Source: Promethearchaeota archaeon (GTDB taxonomy: Archaea; Asgardarchaeota; Lokiarchaeia; Sigyniarchaeales; SOKP01). From it: a stretch of DNA of 32,000 nt. The stretch is taken from positions 74,266 to 106,265 of the forward strand of contig JAUWGH010000009.1 of NCBI GenBank assembly GCA_030606485.1. Reading direction: 5' to 3'. This document shows positions 2,612 to 13,909 of this stretch, one piece after another. The notes under the pieces are model-generated. The model saw only the letters and a program-made list of their open reading frames with translations, ran no database searches and was not told where the DNA came from. Every line of letters starts with the position of its first letter. The first letter of the stretch is position 1. Made by a program: the position numbers and the translations under genes.

Positions 2612-5600
2612 ATGTCTACTAAAAAATTAACAGCATCAATTTTATTATTAGTAATTGGTGGTCTTTTAATAACGAGTGGATTTGTGACAAACGATTACCT
2701 TCGTAGTGAAGTCTCTAAAGGGGTTCCTGATGCTCTTTTGGCTATTAAAGATCAAGTAGAACTTGAAATAGAAGAAACTGTTAAGATTAATGGAGTTCCT
2801 GTGGTTCTTTTGGGAATTAAAGAAGGAGCTCTCCCAGAATTTGAAGATAATGTGGAGACTGAAGCAATTCTTGAAGTTCTTAAGACAGTAAAAGGAATGG
2901 CAATTCCAGAATTTGATGATAATATCAAGACCCAAGCAATTCCTGAGGTTTTAGCTGGAATTAAAACTCAAATTATTCCAGAAATTGAAAAAATGGTCAA
3001 TTTTACAGCATATCTTAATACTCTTATTGAAACTAAAACTCAATTCATTCCAGAAATTGAAAAGATGGTTAATTTTACAGCTTATCTTGAGACTTTAAAC
3101 GAAACTAAAAACAAAGCATTGGAATTTTTACCTGATATAGTCAATGGTTCAACCGCAGCAAAACTAATTAATCAAACCATAGATTTTTTATATTACTATA
3201 ATTTTTCGGACTGGACTCTTGCCAAAGAACATTACTTCAATAATTATACTATCCAAGTAAATACAACGTGTCCAGTTATGGGTGTTTCAGAATATATGCA
3301 TTCTATTGTCCCAGTACTCACTAACCTCTCCTATACGACTGCTGCTCAAGATTATTTATTATACGGAAATGCACCTTATAATTTACCAGGAATAATAACG
3401 GATACTGAATTGGGTAAGGGACTCTTAGAATTTATGGGATACTATGCGTTAGGAGCAGCTGGAAATCTCACGATACAGGGCTTAATGACATTAGGTTACA
3501 ATGCTACTTGGGATCAAATTACGTATCTAGCAGGATATATAAACAACTATTTGTGGACAACCATAGTTCCTGCGGTGATTTGGGCTCAATACGGAATGAC
3601 AACCTCTGATTTTGCAATATTTATGTTCCATGCGCAATGGGCTAATGCCACGTTTGCCGAAGCTGGACTTGACTTGAGTCTTTTTATTGAAGGATATGAT
3701 GACCCCCTCTATGGATTTGAAGCGGGTATTCCGATCAAAACTAATATTTCTTATATGACAGCTTTAGATCTCTGGGATCATATGAATTCCTCATCCTTTG
3801 TGAATGATACTGGACTTATGCTATGGGTTGGTGCATTAGCTGGGGATCCTGCTAGTTATACTAACTTAAAAACAACTTTTGGTCTGAATGATACTCAAAT
3901 GGGAATAGTGCTTTATTGGTTACATGATTGGATGACAGATGTTGCCCCAATTCTTTTTGAGACTGAAAAAGGGATATCACTGGAGGCAGCTCCAGAAATT
4001 ATATTCTATGAGCAATGGGCTAATGGTACAATTTTCGGTGAGGTTATGTTTCCACCACCAGGAATTAACTTTAATGAATTTCTTGGCCTCCCTGGTTACC
4101 TCTATGGGTTTGAAGTGGGTATTTATCCATATGGATCTAATATTTCGCTTACGACGGCCATAGATCTCTGGAATCCGTCATACTCCTATTCACTTATCAA
4201 TAATGTTGGACTTATGCTATGGCTTGGTGCATTAGCAGAATTACCCACCCCTGGTGCTAACTATACTTTCTTAAATACGACTTTTGGTTTGGGAAATGAT
4301 AAAATGATGGCACTCCTTGGCTGGTTATATAATTGGACAGTCATTGTTGCACCAACTCTCTTTTATTATGAATATCTCATAACATTGGATGTTGCTCCAG
4401 AATATATGTTCTATGAACAATGGGCAAATGGTACGATGCTTGGGGAGGAAATGTTTCTAGGCGGACTTGATTTCAGTGATTTTATTGAGGAGTTAGTTGG
4501 ACCTGTCATTGGATTTGAAGTTGGACTTCCACCCAATCCATCAAATATTTCGTTTACATCTGCTAAGGCTCTATGGAATATTTCAAATCCATATTCATTT
4601 ATCAATACAATCACCGGATTTGGATCTTGGTATTTAGCAGGAGTTGAAGAAAATGCAACAATAGTGAGTTTATTAAACGTAACTTTTGGTCTGGCTTCGG
4701 GGCAAATTGAATTAATTATCGATTGGTTATTTAAAACAGTTAAGGAAAATATTGTTCCACCATTCTTTGCACTCCCAGAGGCTTTAGGAGGAAAAGGAAT
4801 GACAACAACGGTTTATGCAGAAATTTTATTATATGAACAATGGGCTAATGCAACTATTGAAGGTCAACCTCAATATCCAGATGGAATTGATCTCCCAGTT
4901 CCAGGAGGGGAAGCACTTAAAGGACTCTTTGAAGTAGGTGTTCCAACCTCCTCTGGTATTTCGCTTACGGCATGTTATGCTCTTTGGGATGATACAAATC
5001 CCTCATCATTTATAAATGATACTGGACTTCAGAAATGGCGCGATGCAGCTACAGAATTTGACGTTTTGTTAAATTTAAGTGGAACATTTGGGCTGGATAT
5101 ATCCCAAATGGGATTAATGCTCAACTGGTTAGATGATATTATTGATATTTTCGTTCCAGCTCTTTTTGCTGATCCAACATTGGGAAAAGGAATGACAATA
5201 CCAGCATATGCAGAAACTCTGTTCTATGAACAATGGGCTAATGGTACGATTCTTGGTGAAAAAGAATATCCACAAGGATTGGATCTAGGTGAAGGTCTTA
5301 CCGGTTTTGAAGTAGGTATTCCAACAGCATCAAATATTTCGCTTGCGATATGTGAACTTCTCTGGAATGAGTTAAATGTCTCAACATTTGTCAATGATAC
5401 TGGAATTGGTAAATGGCTTGATGCAGCTACAAATACTACAGTTCAAGCTGAATTACGCACAACCTTTGGTTTGAATGCAACCCAAATGAGTTTAATCCTT
5501 AATTGGCTATGGGAGAATTCATTTAAAGACGATGTTGTCCCAATTCTCGCAGCAGAAGAGTTAGGAATGTCCTTATCGGATTATGCAGAAGATCTATTCT

Positions 5601-6055
5601 TTGAACAGTGGGCTAATTGTACGATTCTTGGTGAGAAAATGTTTCCAGAAGGAATTGTACTCCCAATTGGTGATCTCACAGGAGTAGAAGTAGGTTGTCC
5701 GACAGCATCAAATATTTCGTTATCAGTTGCTGAAATTCTTTTTGATGATACAAATCCCTCATCAATAGTTGACCCCAGTGGTCTTCAGAAATGGTATAGG
5801 GCAGCGGATTCAAACTCTAGCGAATATTCTGAATTAAAGGTAAAATTTGACTTAACAGATACTCAAATGGGAATGATAACCACGTGGTTAAATAACTTTA
5901 GAGACAGTGTTGTTCCTGTTCTTGCAAAAGAACAAATGGGACTACCAGCAGATCCATATACACTAGGTAGTGGGTTATTCCTTGGAATGGCTATAGGAGG
6001 AGTTTGCTTAGCAGCTCTCGGTGTAGTTGTATTATTATTATCTAGAAGAACATAA
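2612..6055 (+). CDS. Large (1147 aa) membrane-anchored repeat glycoprotein of unknown function
   Basis: Hydrophobic segments at both termini (aa ~7-25 and ~1120-1143, ending SRRT). About 38 N-x-S/T sequons by hand count. Six 24-aa N-terminal repeats plus six 125-140-aa QWANxT repeats. Confidence 0.9.
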   Translation: MSTKKLTASILLLVIGGLLITSGFVTNDYLRSEVSKGVPDALLAIKDQVELEIEETVKINGVPVVLLGIKEGALPEFEDNVETEAILEVLKTVKGMAIPEFDDNIKTQAIPEVLAGIKTQIIPEIEKMVNFTAYLNTLIETKTQFIPEIEKMVNFTAYLETLNETKNKALEFLPDIVNGSTAAKLINQTIDFLYYYNFSDWTLAKEHYFNNYTIQVNTTCPVMGVSEYMHSIVPVLTNLSYTTAAQDYLLYGNAPYNLPGIITDTELGKGLLEFMGYYALGAAGNLTIQGLMTLGYNATWDQITYLAGYINNYLWTTIVPAVIWAQYGMTTSDFAIFMFHAQWANATFAEAGLDLSLFIEGYDDPLYGFEAGIPIKTNISYMTALDLWDHMNSSSFVNDTGLMLWVGALAGDPASYTNLKTTFGLNDTQMGIVLYWLHDWMTDVAPILFETEKGISLEAAPEIIFYEQWANGTIFGEVMFPPPGINFNEFLGLPGYLYGFEVGIYPYGSNISLTTAIDLWNPSYSYSLINNVGLMLWLGALAELPTPGANYTFLNTTFGLGNDKMMALLGWLYNWTVIVAPTLFYYEYLITLDVAPEYMFYEQWANGTMLGEEMFLGGLDFSDFIEELVGPVIGFEVGLPPNPSNISFTSAKALWNISNPYSFINTITGFGSWYLAGVEENATIVSLLNVTFGLASGQIELIIDWLFKTVKENIVPPFFALPEALGGKGMTTTVYAEILLYEQWANATIEGQPQYPDGIDLPVPGGEALKGLFEVGVPTSSGISLTACYALWDDTNPSSFINDTGLQKWRDAATEFDVLLNLSGTFGLDISQMGLMLNWLDDIIDIFVPALFADPTLGKGMTIPAYAETLFYEQWANGTILGEKEYPQGLDLGEGLTGFEVGIPTASNISLAICELLWNELNVSTFVNDTGIGKWLDAATNTTVQAELRTTFGLNATQMSLILNWLWENSFKDDVVPILAAEELGMSLSDYAEDLFFEQWANCTILGEKMFPEGIVLPIGDLTGVEVGCPTASNISLSVAEILFDDTNPSSIVDPSGLQKWYRAADSNSSEYSELKVKFDLTDTQMGMITTWLNNFRDSVVPVLAKEQMGLPADPYTLGSGLFLGMAIGGVCLAALGVVVLLLSRRT
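2723..3154 (+). repeat. Six tandem 72-bp (24-aa) coding repeats
   Basis: aa 38-181 divide exactly into six 24-mers, with Leu at position 5 and Lys at position 9 in all six. Units 4 and 5 share KTQxIPEIEKMVNFTA and are near-identical in DNA (aaaactcaa at 2963 and 3035). Confidence 0.85.
3620..5935 (+). repeat. Six tandem ~125-140-aa coding repeats
   Basis: QWAN codons start at 3635, 4013, 4418, 4838, 5231 and 5606 (spacings 126, 135, 140, 131, 125 aa). Each unit follows QWANxT...GFEVGxP..SNIS....LW....SxINDxG...W......TFGL...Q...I..WL....VP. Confidence 0.92.
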
Positions 6056-6110: not shown

Positions 6111-6234
6111 ATTTTGTTCCTTGACAGATTTAATTATTTTTTGGATTTTCAACCTTTTTTTAAAAGAGAAATATAAAAATAAATAAGAAAACATAAAAAT
6201 AAAAAAACTTAATCAAAATTTAAAGGTGATTTTA

Positions 6235-6576
6235 ATGGCTACTATTGAAGAGATTAAAAATACATTGCATAATTGGGCAAAAATGTTAGAAAACCCTGAA
6301 ATTGCAGATGAATTTGAAGGATACAATAAAATAATGCAATTTATATTTCCTGACATTAATTTAAACTTACAATTGGTTTTTAAAGATAAAACTGCAAAAG
6401 TTGTAGATGGGTTTAATGATAAAGCGGAAATGAGTTTAAAAGTTAATTCGGATCTCTTTATTGGCATATCCACTGGAGATATTGATCCAATGGAAGCATT
6501 TATGAATGGCGAACTAAAACCTAAAGGAGATTTAGCTGATTTGGAAAAATTGGAAATTTTTATGGATATAGATTAG
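6235..6576 (+). CDS. SCP2 sterol/lipid-binding domain protein
   Basis: C-terminal DPMEAFMNGELKPKGDLADLEKL is the typical SCP2 signature. The GTG at 6226 in the ORF track is part of the GGTGAT RBS, so ATG 6235 is the likelier start. Confidence 0.85.
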   Translation: MATIEEIKNTLHNWAKMLENPEIADEFEGYNKIMQFIFPDINLNLQLVFKDKTAKVVDGFNDKAEMSLKVNSDLFIGISTGDIDPMEAFMNGELKPKGDLADLEKLEIFMDID

Positions 6577-6646: not shown

Positions 6647-7414
6647 TTAATTAAAAAAATCTCCATGTTTTCCTTTCCCTTCTATAAATACCTGAGATCC
6701 TTTTAAGTGTTCTTCACTTGCTAAAGTTTTAAGACCATGTTCAAATTCATTTGCTAATGCATCTTTTAAATTTAATCCAAATTGTTCATATACCGAAAAT
6801 CGATCCTCTCTAAGACATGATTGTGGAAATGAAGCAATTTCTCTGGCTAATTTTTCAGCCTCCTCTCTTGACTTATCAACATCAACAACTTGATTTGCAA
6901 GACCCATCCTAAATGCCTCTTCAGCAGTAATAGGTCGTCCTGTAAGTATCATATCCAATGCATTACTTAATCCAATTAATCTTGGAAGGCGTACCGTACC
7001 ACCGTCGATAAGTGGGACTCCAAACCTCCGGCAAAAAACTCCAAAAACTGCATTTTTTTCAACAATTCGCAAATCACACCATAAAGCGAGCTCTAATCCT
7101 CCAGCAACTGCATATCCAGCAACTGCAGCAATAACGGGTTTTGATAAAACCAACCTAGTTGGTCCCATTGGGCCATCTCCTTTCTTCTCTATTCTATTTC
7201 CATTTCCCATGGCTATTGCCTTTAGATTTGCACCCGAACAAAATATCCCATTTGCACCCCAAAGAACCGCTACACGTGCATTCCCATCCTGTTCAAACTC
7301 TCGAAACGCATTTGCAAGTGAAGTAGCGCTTTTTCGATCAATTGCATTCTTAACTTCAGGATTATCAATAATTACTGTAGTTATCACTCCATCTTTTTCT
7401 ACTCTTATTCCCAT
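6647..7414 (-). CDS. Enoyl-CoA hydratase/isomerase (crotonase) family protein
   Basis: FCSGANL, KPVIAAVAGYAVAGGLELALWCDLR, RFGVPLIDGG, LDMILTGR...AEEA motifs. Confidence 0.93.
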   Translation of the reverse strand: MGIRVEKDGVITTVIIDNPEVKNAIDRKSATSLANAFREFEQDGNARVAVLWGANGIFCSGANLKAIAMGNGNRIEKKGDGPMGPTRLVLSKPVIAAVAGYAVAGGLELALWCDLRIVEKNAVFGVFCRRFGVPLIDGGTVRLPRLIGLSNALDMILTGRPITAEEAFRMGLANQVVDVDKSREEAEKLAREIASFPQSCLREDRFSVYEQFGLNLKDALANEFEHGLKTLASEEHLKGSQVFIEGKGKHGDFFN

Positions 7415-9546: not shown

Positions 9547-10899
9547 TTATTCTTCTTTTTCCCAATCGAAATCAAGTTTTACAAATTTTCTGGAGTAGAA
9601 ATAAGCAACAATTAATATTAAAGAACATATTGGCCCCCATATTACATGTCCTATAGAAAAGGTTGCCGTCCCAACATCTATTTTGGGTAATTCCAATAGA
9701 ACCCCCATAATAAGAATACCTACTATTTGGAAGAGATTTAGAACTATACTAGGAAAGCCTTTATAAATTCCTGCTTTTAATTCGCCCGTTGTTTTTTCGT
9801 CATCTTCAGTAATATCTGAAATGAAAACAGGAGGAAGTAAAAACCAGCCAGCCATGGCCCCAGCCAATCCTAGGATAAATAATATTCCAAATATAATGGA
9901 TGAATCCATAGGTATCAAACCTAACAAAGAGAATGGAAGGATAATAATTGCTACTAGAAAAATATATAAAAGACTTCTTTTTTTTCCTAATTTGTGTACT
10001 AGCCTCCTCCATATATATAAGAAAGTTAATATCCCTATTATGAAAATAACTGATGCTATAATATTAGTCATGAAGTCAAAAATTAAAACTACTACAATGT
10101 ATTGTAACATTAATGAGCCTATCATTATCCAAGCCACACTAGCGAGACCGATCATTATGATTACTAATATATAATTCTTATTTTTTAGAATTATTTTTAA
10201 ATTCTGAAATATATTAGAATCTATCTTAAAATGTGGTTCTGTAGGCATTAAAAAGGTAGCCAAATAAAATAGTACTACTGGAATAATCCCAAATATTAAT
10301 ACACTATATAAAAATTCTGGTGGAATAATATCTGGGTTTGTTTGGATATCATCAATACAAGCTGTTAAAACTACCATTGAAAAAATCGTAATTACTGCCG
10401 TTCCAATCATACCAAAAATTTGTTGATATTGAGACGATTTGGGTCTATCATCAACTCTAAATTGTTCAGTCATCCAAGATCCATATGGTGTAGTAACACC
10501 ATAACATAGATTAAAAATTTGATACCATACTAATAACCACATAAATAATATGCTGGCATCAGTGATATCTAATACTAAACCTGGCAATAGTAAAAAAAAG
10601 AAGGATACTCCAAGTATTGGACTCAAAATAATTAAATATGGTTTTCTTCTTCCCAATCGTGTATATTTCGCATCACTAATCCATCCAAAAAAGAATTGAG
10701 AGGCAGCAATAGTAAGTTTTCCTAATGCCATAGCAACAGTTGTGATAAATGGAGGTAAACCATAAGCCAAACTATAAAGGGTAAATAAAGCCAAATCTGC
10801 AAATGTCATCAGAACAGATGTTCCGAATTTTGGCATCCCAAAGAAGAGAAATTTACTTGTTTTACTTTTACTCCATAGCTTAATTTCTTTTTCACTCAT
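9547..10899 (-). CDS. GPH/MelB-like MFS transporter (paralog A)
   Basis: About 12 hydrophobic segments, GWISD...LGRRKPY, LGKK and DDEKTTGELKAGIYKG motifs of the glycoside-pentoside-hexuronide family. Confidence 0.9.
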   Translation of the reverse strand: MSEKEIKLWSKSKTSKFLFFGMPKFGTSVLMTFADLALFTLYSLAYGLPPFITTVAMALGKLTIAASQFFFGWISDAKYTRLGRRKPYLIILSPILGVSFFFLLLPGLVLDITDASILFMWLLVWYQIFNLCYGVTTPYGSWMTEQFRVDDRPKSSQYQQIFGMIGTAVITIFSMVVLTACIDDIQTNPDIIPPEFLYSVLIFGIIPVVLFYLATFLMPTEPHFKIDSNIFQNLKIILKNKNYILVIIMIGLASVAWIMIGSLMLQYIVVVLIFDFMTNIIASVIFIIGILTFLYIWRRLVHKLGKKRSLLYIFLVAIIILPFSLLGLIPMDSSIIFGILFILGLAGAMAGWFLLPPVFISDITEDDEKTTGELKAGIYKGFPSIVLNLFQIVGILIMGVLLELPKIDVGTATFSIGHVIWGPICSLILIVAYFYSRKFVKLDFDWEKEE

Positions 10900-11012
10900 A
10901 TCAATTTCACATATTTATTAATAAATTTTTTAAGTAAATTGTAAATAAAATTCTTCCTCATGATTTATAAAGTTTTATTCAAATAGCAACTAAAAAAATT
11001 TTAACTTTATTT

Positions 11013-12365
11013 TTATTGGTTTTTTTCCCACACAAAATCAAGTTGTATAAATTTTCTAATGTACCAATATGTAATAACAAATATTAACGAACATAATGGT
11101 CCCCATAAAACTAAACCTAATGAAAAGGTTAAAGGTCCTACGACAATATCAGGTAATTCTAATATAATCCCCATAATAAACAAACCCAATGCTTGAAAAA
11201 GATTTAAAGTTATACTTGGAAAACCAGTATATATGCCTGCTTTTAATTCCCCTGTTTTTACCTCATCATCTTCAGCAATATCTGCATACATAATTGCAGG
11301 GAATAAAGCCCAGCCGCTCAAACACCCTGCTAATCCAAGGATAAAAAGTATTCCAAATATAAGGGATGAATCCATCGGAATTAATCCTATTAAAGTTAAT
11401 GGGAGAATAAGAAATCCTAACAGAAAAATACATAAAAGACTTTGTTTTTTTCCTAATTTTTGTATCACTCTTCTCCATATATATAAGAAACCTAACATCC
11501 CAAAAATCATAATACCTGCTGCAATAATATAATCCATATCATTAAATTGTAAAACTTCCACGATATATATTAACATTATTCCAGTTATTGTTATAGTAGC
11601 TATACCAGAGATACCTTGCATAATGGCTACTAATAAAAAATTCTTATTTTTTAGAATTGTCTTTAAATTCTGAATTATATTTGATTCTATCTTAAAATGT
11701 GGTTCCTTAGCCATTAAAAGGCTAGCTAAATAAAATAAAACTACTGGAAATATCCCAAATATTATCACACTATATAAAAATTCTGGCGGAATATTTTCTG
11801 GGTTTGTTTGTATTTTTTCAAACACTTCTGTTAAAATTACCATTGAAAAAGCTGTAATTACTGCGTATCCAACCATACCAAAAAATTGCTCGTATTGAGA
11901 CGCTCTGGGTCGGACCTCAACTCTGAATTGTTCAGCCATCCAAGCTCCATATGGTGAAGTAACGCCATAACATATGTTAAAAATTTGATACCAAACTAAT
12001 AACCAAATAAATAATACGTCAAGATTAGTGATATCTAATATTAATCCAGGTAGAAGTAAAAATATGAAAGATAATCCTAGTATTGGACTCAGAATGATTA
12101 AATATGGTTTTCTTCTCCCCCATCGTGTATATTTTGCATCACTAACCCATCCAAAAAAAAATTGAGAGGTAGCGATAGTAAGTTTTCCTAATCCTAAGGC
12201 AATACCAACAAGAAATGGAGTTATTTGATAACCTAAAACATAAAGAGCGAATAAAGCAAAATCAGCAAATCCCATGATAATAGATGTTCCAAATTTTGGC
12301 ATCCCAAAAGTTACTAATTTACTCGTTTTACTCTTGGCCCTAGTAATAATTTCTTCTTGATTCAA
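11013..12365 (-). CDS. GPH/MelB-like MFS transporter (paralog B, tandem duplicate of A)
   Basis: Colinear and highly similar to 9547..10899. Start proposed at TTG 12365 because it sits 7 nt after TGTGA, as the ATG of paralog A does. Confidence 0.9.
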   Translation of the reverse strand: MNQEEIITRAKSKTSKLVTFGMPKFGTSIIMGFADFALFALYVLGYQITPFLVGIALGLGKLTIATSQFFFGWVSDAKYTRWGRRKPYLIILSPILGLSFIFLLLPGLILDITNLDVLFIWLLVWYQIFNICYGVTSPYGAWMAEQFRVEVRPRASQYEQFFGMVGYAVITAFSMVILTEVFEKIQTNPENIPPEFLYSVIIFGIFPVVLFYLASLLMAKEPHFKIESNIIQNLKTILKNKNFLLVAIMQGISGIATITITGIMLIYIVEVLQFNDMDYIIAAGIMIFGMLGFLYIWRRVIQKLGKKQSLLCIFLLGFLILPLTLIGLIPMDSSLIFGILFILGLAGCLSGWALFPAIMYADIAEDDEVKTGELKAGIYTGFPSITLNLFQALGLFIMGIILELPDIVVGPLTFSLGLVLWGPLCSLIFVITYWYIRKFIQLDFVWEKNQ

Positions 12366-12492
12366 AATGTTCTCACATATTTTTTGCAAAAATTTTTTAA
12401 AATAAATTGTAAAATAAATAATCTAATAAAAATTCTGTAAATGAATATAAGAAATTTTTGATTAAATATTAACTATCTTTTCTGTTTATTTT

Positions 12493-12503
12493 AAAAAAAA
12501 AAA
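12493..12503 (-). terminator. U-tract terminator (T11 on minus strand)
   Basis: A11 on the plus strand, 20 nt past the stop at 12524. Confidence 0.5.
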
Positions 12504-12523
12504 TAAAATTTTAGATTAATGAT

Positions 12524-13909
12524 TTATTGAATTTTTTCTAATTCAATTAATCGTTTTTCATGAAGAACCTTTAGTTTTTCTTGTTGTTCGCAGAAGTTTT
12601 TGTAGTTTATTGGGAAGAATTTAAAAATTATTAAAGCACATAATCCTCCAAGAACAGGAACTAGTGATATTAATAATGTTAAACCGAATAAAGCAGAGGG
12701 TGATTGAGTTTCTGATCCCGATTCAAAGCCAGTAAGTAGTTGAACAGTTGTTAGAGTTATAGCCGCGAGCACAAGAGATAACCTTACTATAAATCCAAAA
12801 ACTCCGGTATACGTTCCTTCACGTCTTTTTCCAGTTTTCAATTCATCATAATCTATCGCTGCGCTGACTGCTGGTTCAGTCATCAACATTCCACCTACTC
12901 CAAAACCTGGTATGATTGTTATAAGTATTAGCATGGTAAAATCATTTACAAGAAAAATAGGCCAAATTGTTGCCGTAAATATTCCCATTGATAGGAGTAA
13001 TCCATATTTTGGTCCTTTTTTTGCATACATCCATCTCCAAAATAGCACACTAATAAGAATTCCTAATGCGATTCCCAAGAGACCAACACCAATCAATCCT
13101 ACTTCCACTTCCAGAACAAATAAAGCATATAGAGGAAGAACCATCATGGTTAAGCCAAATATAGTGTCAAGAATTGCATATGTCAATGTAATAATTAAGA
13201 ATGGCTTATTCGTAAGAGTCTCTTTAAATGCAGGAATGTAAGATAAAGGTTTATCTATTTGATACTCTTTTCTTTCTTTAATTCCAAGAAGTGACAAATA
13301 CATAAATATTGGTATTGTTAATCCAAAAATTATTCCAGCCATTGTCCAACTAGTAGCTGAAACAATCATAGGAGTTATTATAACACTAACCATACCTGAA
13401 AGAAATGCAAAGGTATCTTTCATAGCTACCATTGTTGCCCTTTCTTCTTCTTCTTCATACATTTCCGTGTATAATGCAGACCAAGCAGTCATTGCCAATG
13501 TAAAACCAAGATCGAATAGAAATAGCATTAGTAAAGCATGAAAAAATATAGCTGTCTGATCTGTCCATGGAACCCACCATAAAAGTATAAATCCAATAGT
13601 AAATGGAATAGTTCCAACGACAATATATGGAACTCGACGACCCCATTTAGTCACCTTTTTATCCATTAAATATCCAACTAAAGGATCATTAATTGCATTC
13701 CAGACACCATAAATTACCCATAAAACACCAAATAAAAAAGGATCAAGTCCAAGTGTTACTTCATAAAACAATACAATATAAGAACCTATTATTTGATAAG
13801 GAAGTGATGAAGGAATAGCTCCCAGAGAATACAGAAGATGTCCACGTAAGGAATGCACTTTATCTTTTACTTTTTTTTCTTTAATCTTTTTTTCATTCAT
13901 AGTAATCAA
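12524..13909 (-). CDS. GPH/MelB-like sugar:cation symporter (paralog C, more distant)
   Basis: WNAINDPLVGYLMD, WGRRVPY and DYDELKTGKRREGTY motifs. Real start may be ATG 13900. Confidence 0.92.
   Translation of the reverse strand: MITMNEKKIKEKKVKDKVHSLRGHLLYSLGAIPSSLPYQIIGSYIVLFYEVTLGLDPFLFGVLWVIYGVWNAINDPLVGYLMDKKVTKWGRRVPYIVVGTIPFTIGFILLWWVPWTDQTAIFFHALLMLFLFDLGFTLAMTAWSALYTEMYEEEEERATMVAMKDTFAFLSGMVSVIITPMIVSATSWTMAGIIFGLTIPIFMYLSLLGIKERKEYQIDKPLSYIPAFKETLTNKPFLIITLTYAILDTIFGLTMMVLPLYALFVLEVEVGLIGVGLLGIALGILISVLFWRWMYAKKGPKYGLLLSMGIFTATIWPIFLVNDFTMLILITIIPGFGVGGMLMTEPAVSAAIDYDELKTGKRREGTYTGVFGFIVRLSLVLAAITLTTVQLLTGFESGSETQSPSALFGLTLLISLVPVLGGLCALIIFKFFPINYKNFCEQQEKLKVLHEKRLIELEKIQ

Follow-up and report, generated by a model that had tools for sequence, protein, structure and literature searches.

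The CD36/LIMP-2 receptors have been treated as eukaryotic proteins, and no paper linking CD36 with Asgard archaea was found in the literature. Among the archaea themselves, cultured Lokiarchaeia have no S-layer and display protruding surface proteins (PMC9834061), a glycoprotein of MK-D1 has been modelled with helices at both ends (PMC11284389), and a C-terminal transmembrane (TM) anchor is common among archaeal surface proteins (PMC6098224). Here we describe a gene at positions 2612-6055 (+ strand) of a 32,000-nucleotide stretch of DNA, the window, from a Promethearchaeota archaeon of the Lokiarchaeia (GenBank assembly GCA_030606485.1, contig JAUWGH010000009.1, positions 74,266 to 106,265 of the forward strand; G+C about 30%). 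The open reading frame (ORF) encodes 1147 amino acids plus a stop, and a profile search of the genome finds its product, P0001, to be the sole family member there. With a probability of roughly 60%, P0001 is a glycosylated, barrel-less, CD36-related surface protein folded as a hairpin rod and acting as a spacer, adhesin or ligand-capture device.

Hydropathy gives just two hydrophobic stretches in P0001, residues 5-28 and about 1117-1145, which bears out the two-TM hairpin with an intervening loop proposed in a preliminary description of this DNA. The first helix, TM1, follows a short basic N-terminal tail (MSTKK) and leads into a juxtamembrane helix, NDYLRSEVSKG; this segment (2612..2719) is delimited by hydropathy, family conservation and homology to TM1 and helix alpha-1 of archaeal CD36-type proteins. 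The second, TM2 (residues about 1117-1143; 5960..6052 including the tail SRRT), is recognised by hydropathy and family conservation and has a conserved LP.(D/E)PY.LG motif just before it. Its tail is basic, as had been stated, with a length of four residues and not three. The MSTKK and SRRT flanks of the two helices fit an N-in/C-in topology, in which TM1 is probably an uncleaved signal anchor. All 38 N-x-S/T sequons of P0001 lie between TM1 and TM2, where 8.7 +/- 2.6 (maximum 18) would be expected from 1000 shuffles of the same composition, a 4.4-fold excess. With its pair of TM helices, short tails on the cytoplasmic side and a sequon-rich ectodomain, P0001 has the outward organisation of the CD36 class.

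The QWAN motif recurs at residues 342, 468, 603, 743, 874 and 999 and marks six repeats of about 130 residues, with 37-47% identity to repeat 1 and 22 invariant columns, far above chance. Their alignment places repeat 1 at 3590..3973 (residues 327-454), repeat 2 at 3968..4378 (453-589), repeat 3 at 4373..4789 (588-726), repeat 4 at 4793..5185 (728-858), repeat 5, the copy used for folding, at 5186..5566 (859-985) and the membrane-proximal repeat 6 at 5561..5947 (984-1112), all on the + strand like the other parts of the gene. A seventh, degenerate copy, R0 (residues about 181-326; 3152..3589), precedes the six full ones; it is a helical QWAN-like domain, assigned from sequence and fold, that would cap the hairpin where it turns at its far end. 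Between TM1 and R0 lies the strut (residues 37-180; 2720..3151), six tandem 24-residue (12+12) Pro-punctuated helical units with the C-terminal end ..IVNGS, defined by register, unit count and fold. A profile of 110 repeats finds six full repeats in P0001 (domain E 1e-34 to 3e-45), and a hidden Markov model (HMM) of R0 plus repeat 1 (R1) scores the protein at 284 bits. Pfam and NCBIfam give nothing above threshold (best noise HTH_73, E 0.03, and EII-GUT, E 0.3), the repeat profile has no match at E <= 10 among PDB sequences, and an ESM Atlas feature search with the P0001 family returned no usable match; the earlier view that the six QWANxT repeats belong to no recognised family holds in all three sequence collections.

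Some of the sequons had also been said to occupy fixed positions in the repeats, at a total of about 38, and both statements survive counting: 88% of the 110 repeats retain the W-x-N-x-T sequon, with Trp at -2 in 97. In aromatic sequons, familiar from protein engineering, the first sugar stacks on the aromatic ring and stabilises the fold. By analogy, the QWAN-x-T glycan probably stacks on the Trp and belongs to the repeat fold.

Structure prediction gave repeat 5 a confident fold of six helices and a long ordered loop (predicted local distance difference test, pLDDT, 96.3; predicted template-modelling score, pTM, 0.89). No clear structural neighbour emerged for it from Foldseek against the PDB (best E 4.9), from the ESM Atlas (template-modelling score <= 0.34) or from a VIA-wide search, where the best match (Z 4.2, root-mean-square deviation 3.0, 65 residues aligned) was of the generic, homeodomain-like three-helix kind. 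A model of residues 29-335 has long helices to residue about 168 (pLDDT 46-70 when folded alone), followed by R0 as a confident helical domain (pLDDT >90). Against PDB folds, this N-domain, queried as a whole, matched just single long helices or coiled coils (Z 6.4, root-mean-square deviation 2.8, 63 aligned).

A clue to ancestry comes from the wider repeat family. Across 1.84 billion representatives, the repeat profile matches in 304 clusters, Asgard and protist CD36-family proteins among them. The longest matches are oomycete proteins, some named scavenger receptor class B, in which PF01130 is split in two; where one or two repeats are matched, the hit is a complete CD36-family protein (PF01130 E 1e-37 to 1e-89), likewise split, at profile position about 140-155. 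The split hits come from Hodarchaeales, Heimdallarchaeota, Kariarchaeaceae, Lokiarchaeota, Cavostelium, Muranothrix, Aphanomyces, Pythium and Phytophthora, so that CD36 carriers of the repeat or module span Heimdall-, Hod-, Kari- and Lokiarchaeota together with oomycetes, an amoebozoan and a ciliate. Because the oomycete copies stand on contigs of up to 14.5 Mb, they are not contamination. HMMs of the N-domain and of R0+R1 from the window's family cover the CD36 insertions collinearly (109-216 bits), and the alignments share the motifs QWAN(G/A)T, FEVG, LWD..N..SF and IL.WL. Common to protist CD36 proteins and without a clear structural neighbour, the repeat thus represents a new domain that links eukaryotes with Asgard archaea.

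Within LIMP-2, residues 106-116 are taken here to lie just before the apical helices. A Lokiarchaeial CD36 protein (L021:1228-3555), which matches human LIMP-2 at E 4.8e-44, carries its insertion between chain residues 106 and 116 of PDB 4q4b. In all Asgard PF01130 hits both halves align to the profile region of about 125-190, a pattern suggesting that the tip was duplicated locally around the insertion. The likeness extends to the membrane anchor: a 48-column HMM of TM1 and alpha-1 from the window's family finds Lokiarchaeial CD36 proteins at E 1e-11, against a best of E 0.16 among the 4503 ORFs of the window's own genome, and the helix that it matches in proteins of the L021 type aligns to LIMP-2 helix 1. 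What had been noticed as a loose resemblance of the N-terminus to CD36 and LIMP-2 is therefore real homology. The top ESM Atlas shape match of strut plus R0 is a 514-member archaeal cluster, 82% of it with PF01130 (template-modelling score 0.39, 170 residues aligned). Lacking the CD36 barrel, P0001 is a relative of the CD36 family and not a member of it. PF01130 scores above the cut-off in 28 of the 400 genomes of Asgard archaea, and 20 of the 28 belong to the window's own taxonomic family; one Lokiarchaeial genome holds two CD36-type genes in tandem (G264:C33:2974-8298).

The CD36 beta-barrel had been called not evident in P0001, rightly: PF01130 has no match to it at E <= 1, no C-terminal CD36 motif is present, and the folded parts are helical. 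Since the remaining five repeats share homology with repeat 5, which was folded, and strut, R0 and repeats fill the ectodomain, no room is left for a barrel. Nor was a CD36 gene found by profile, tblastn or phmmer in the window's genome, which is 100% complete by marker genes. These results bear directly on the proposal, made in the preliminary description, of a surface receptor binding lipids or particles. In its full form, a CD36-like receptor would capture lipids or lipid particles and feed the products of neighbouring SCP2 and crotonase (beta-oxidation) genes; the homology in TM1 and the tip module is real, SCP2 copies stand on both sides of the gene, and a crotonase adjoins. Yet the barrel with its lipid tunnel is absent and the genome lacks a PF01130 gene, so that lipid channelling by P0001 is unsupported and not expected.

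The genomic context weakens that proposal further. Downstream of the rod gene lie an SCP2 gene (6226-6576, +; PF02036, E 5e-12) and a crotonase gene (6647-7414, -). A second SCP2, paralogous to the first and in direct orientation with it, flanks the rod gene upstream (1847-2229, +); a frameshift near 1955-1985 places its N-terminal 45 residues out of frame with the remainder, which marks a pseudogene or else a fault in the assembly. An ORF on the opposite strand (1875-2207, -) was considered as an SCP2 and rejected as probably spurious, the real upstream SCP2 being on the + strand. Reading of the SCP2 frames, with no predictor applied, reveals no evident N-terminal hydrophobic segment, and their products are probably cytosolic. 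Both gene types named as support for the receptor are thus present, but one SCP2 copy is broken and the arrangement is missing elsewhere: no SCP2 gene adjoins the homologue at any of five loci, and the crotonase recurs only at an 84%-identical orthologous locus (L007), through local synteny, where no SCP2 is called at either flanking position. No conserved neighbour is common to the homologue loci and the window. Taken together, we consider a lipid-capturing receptor very improbable.

P0001 could also act in trans, as a co-receptor presenting ligands to separate CD36-type barrel proteins. Two genomes of one Lokiarchaeial genus offer a suggestive arrangement, in which a CD36-type gene (814-851 aa; in L019, PF01130 E 4.5e-91) divergently adjoins a two-repeat QWAN-type gene of 567-568 aa (L019:1616-5921; L020:1298-5613). 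Adjacency was seen in that genus only, however; elsewhere the two genes are on different contigs or 23 kb apart, and the window's genome, complete by marker genes, has no CD36-type gene to serve as partner. Such a co-receptor is accordingly a highly improbable reading of P0001. In both L019 and L020, the divergent pair is followed by a conserved 185-aa soluble ORF of no known family, which differs from a half-MFS-like protein described below.

Having set these receptor models aside, we return to the barrel-less rod, for which the internal arithmetic of the family is informative. After TM1, family members keep a strict 12/24-residue register of Pro-punctuated units, closed by a conserved (I/V)(I/V)N(G/A)S, and in 29 of 32 proteins handled by an automated parse there are as many 24-mers as QWAN repeats (Spearman 0.86). 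Strut-to-repeat counts run from 2:2 (P0130, P0134, P0140) and 3:3 (P0010, P0027, P0040, P0033 and P0082 types) through 4:4 (P0011, P0018, P0105, P0022) and 5:5 (P0004) to 6:6 in P0001 and its two closest relatives and 7:7 in P0005 and P0006. Two of the three misfits are a truncated fragment and P0096, from a subfamily with partly parsed repeats. Over all 134 proteins, N-region length showed no linear relation to repeat number (slope -0.24, p 0.98; Spearman 0.29), a consequence of the admixture of other architectures that direct counting of 24-mers resolved. Coupling is seen in separate subfamilies and, at five, six and seven units, within the window's own clade, so it arose repeatedly; among CD36-type proteins the 1:1 rule holds roughly.

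An antiparallel hairpin is the geometry that these counts favour. CD36 proteins carry the collinear module within a single loop, which obliges its two ends to come together there, and with one strut unit to each repeat this leads to a strut running outward, a turn at R0 and repeats running back. A full-length alignment for P0001 is about five sequences deep over repeats 2-4; complex prediction was run on the homologue P0027, split into residues 30-96 and 109-640. The two chains scored ipSAE 0.36, with 0.00 for the best control, a result classed as "weak support"; contacts agreed between runs at at least 91%, with partner pLDDT at least 74. In the benchmark, 58 of the 80 solved complexes attained this ipSAE mark, as did 2 of the 110 mismatched pairs, although scores <= 0.60 came from just 7 of the 80 solved complexes and from the two mismatches. 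The length rule and the hairpin rod itself are inferred with good support, from sequence regularities above all, and at about 3.6 nm per unit the rod of P0001 would be roughly 25 nm long.

An ordinary type I surface protein would account for some of the same features: TM1 would be a cleaved Sec signal peptide, and TM2 would carry an extended rod whose strut and R0 formed a free head at the far end. The N-terminus does resemble a signal peptide (KK, a hydrophobic core, TSG/F), and C-terminal TM anchors are, as noted above, common in archaeal surface proteins (PMC6098224). Against this, conservation of TM1 and of the helix after it is strong throughout the family, and the two specifically resemble the uncleaved TM1 of CD36-type proteins; the module fits one loop of the CD36 proteins, and an extended rod offers no rationale for 1:1 coupling of strut units and repeats. 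Proline at -3 is, in general, unfavourable for signal-peptidase cleavage. Most homologues have just this residue at -3, in IPTG/F at the end of TM1. We therefore regard the type I arrangement as unlikely.

On the hairpin reading, the host would be a Lokiarchaeia-type Asgard archaeon of marine sediment, and P0001 a cell-surface N-glycoprotein with both ends in the membrane (N-in, C-in). It would descend, as a derived barrel-less paralogue, from archaeal long-form CD36/LIMP-2 proteins, having kept the CD36-type TM1, first helix and tip module and lost the barrel. Six 24-residue strut units would extend outward from TM1, R0 would cap the distal end, and six QWAN domains would return to TM2; with one domain per strut unit, rod length would be set by repeat number. 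Up to 38 sequons may be glycosylated. On an envelope without an S-layer, such a protruding, glycan-clad rod might act as a spacer, an adhesin or a ligand-capture device, with R0 at its tip as the putative binding site; CD36-style passage of lipid to the membrane would not be possible without the barrel.

In a quick, unrooted maximum-likelihood tree computed from 94 rows of R0+R1, 72 barrel-less proteins, P0001 included, fall on one side of a branch that has 95% support in the Shimodaira-Hasegawa-like approximate likelihood ratio test (SH-aLRT), and Hod, Kari and Heimdall CD36-type proteins group apart. Loss of the barrel is favoured because TM1 and helix 1 are common to barrel-less and CD36 proteins, which insertion of a module into CD36 would not explain. 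Lokiarchaeia thus carry CD36-type proteins plus a spun-off family of the tip module alone, and both this barrel-less family and its ruler rule are new. A broader scenario is speculative, and we put it forward only tentatively: the QWAN rod would be an ancestral CD36 tip module of Asgard archaea, passed vertically into early eukaryotes, kept in oomycetes, amoebozoans and ciliates and lost in animals, and the freed Lokiarchaeial rod would be among the "complex surface proteins" of cryo-tomography, serving syntrophic contact with a reach adjusted as strut units and repeats are gained or lost together. The rule predicts a surface rod of adjustable length, and with the P0001 family there is a named candidate for the densities at the surface of Asgard cells, considered relevant to cell-cell contact in models of eukaryote origin.

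Several observations weigh against this account. The proposed role as spacer, adhesin or ligand-capture rod is its least certain step and weakly inferred. The hairpin draws on counting rules, the logic of insertion into one loop and one weak complex score on a homologue; P0008, with six strut units and five repeats, is a true exception to the 1:1 rule, and the struts of some subfamilies (P0026 and P0037 types) are not cleanly parsed. TM1 could be cleaved, P0001 having TSG/F where most relatives have the proline, and the C-terminal TM region of the family has no significant similarity to CD36-type proteins. As the R0+R1 tree is unrooted, parsimony alone decides between barrel loss and module insertion into CD36. 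Evidence at the RNA level is confined to contigs of a relative with 93-95% identity, all from a single metatranscriptome, and to positions 5007-5966.

These RNA-library contigs of the relative are a weak hint of expression; in the source study's own RNA runs, X22 and X23, no contig fell on the stretch, which is no proof of silence. DNA of this kind is present in cold-seep and marine-sediment metagenomes. A word-indexed search found 101 full-length homologues, none annotated, and all given source names are Asgard lineages or subsurface metagenomes. The commonest form has about 675 residues and three repeats, within a range of two to seven, and the family is present in 95 of 400 Asgard genomes, including 82 of 134 from the window's own taxonomic family.

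This distribution is pertinent to a purely structural interpretation, in which P0001 would be a glycocalyx picket that sets envelope thickness and has no specific ligand. The very many sequons, some at fixed positions, would suit a coat, as would a length that varies with repeat number, the single genomic copy and the lack of an S-layer in Lokiarchaeia (PMC9834061). An essential coat would hardly be expected to be missing, as this family is, from about 40% of the genomes of its own taxonomic family and from the majority of other Asgard families, and a structural role overlaps the spacer, adhesin or ligand-capture rod rather than excluding it. A coat function pure and simple is, in our estimation, somewhat unlikely.

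Other genes around members of the family can be recorded briefly. In two distant loci, the QWAN-type gene is preceded, in divergent orientation, by a gene of about 185-190 aa resembling half of a major facilitator superfamily (MFS) transporter (L011:5269-5826, -; L012:5100-5672, -; PF07690, E ~1e-6, below cut-off); no such gene stands beside the P0001 gene. In two related Lokiarchaeial metagenome-assembled genomes, co-oriented unannotated ORFs of 203 aa and about 1122-1126 aa, without Pfam matches, lie upstream of the QWAN-type gene (L009:1508-5484; L010:1535-5523). Downstream in the window, three tandem MFS_2 transporter genes of the glycoside-pentoside-hexuronide (GPH) type (9547-13909, -) lie beside genes for an M24 peptidase and a short-chain dehydrogenase/reductase (SDR); the MFS_2 genes appear unrelated to the rod gene.

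P0001 can be compared with several described systems. Archaeal S-layer and other surface glycoproteins with a C-terminal TM anchor share its surface location, heavy N-glycosylation and C-terminal anchor; P0001 differs in having a second, N-terminal anchor, and nothing suggests a lattice. No S-layer similarity was found in Pfam, NCBIfam, PDB sequences, Foldseek or VIA, and absence there does not exclude an S-layer protein. Exchangeable apolipoproteins, with Pro-punctuated 11/22-mer helices, recall the Pro-punctuated 12/24-residue helical units of the strut, but in P0001 these units are tied 1:1 to globular repeats, which argues for an intramolecular strut rather than a lipid-binding belt. The CD36-type proteins of Marine Group II archaea, the top ESM Atlas shape match of strut plus R0, keep the barrel and show no QWAN match at the sequence level among the named hits.

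With CD36, SR-B and LIMP-2 (PF01130; PDB 4q4b, 4f7b, 5lgd), P0001 shares two TM segments, very short cytoplasmic tails, a large N-glycosylated ectodomain and, by transitive profile matches, a homologous TM1 and first helix; it differs in lacking the beta-barrel, PF01130 and the C-terminal CD36 motif, all of its folded parts being helical. Also close are the long-form CD36 proteins of Asgard archaea (Hod P0159, Heimdall P0204, Kari P0186 and Loki L021:1228-3555) and of Aphanomyces, Pythium, Phytophthora, Cavostelium and Muranothrix, which contain the same module of strut, R0 and QWAN domain, collinear over 250-450 residues and with the same 24-residue periodicity in the strut. In these long forms the module is inserted into the tip of a complete barrel, whereas in P0001 it is joined straight to the TM helices and carries six full repeats.

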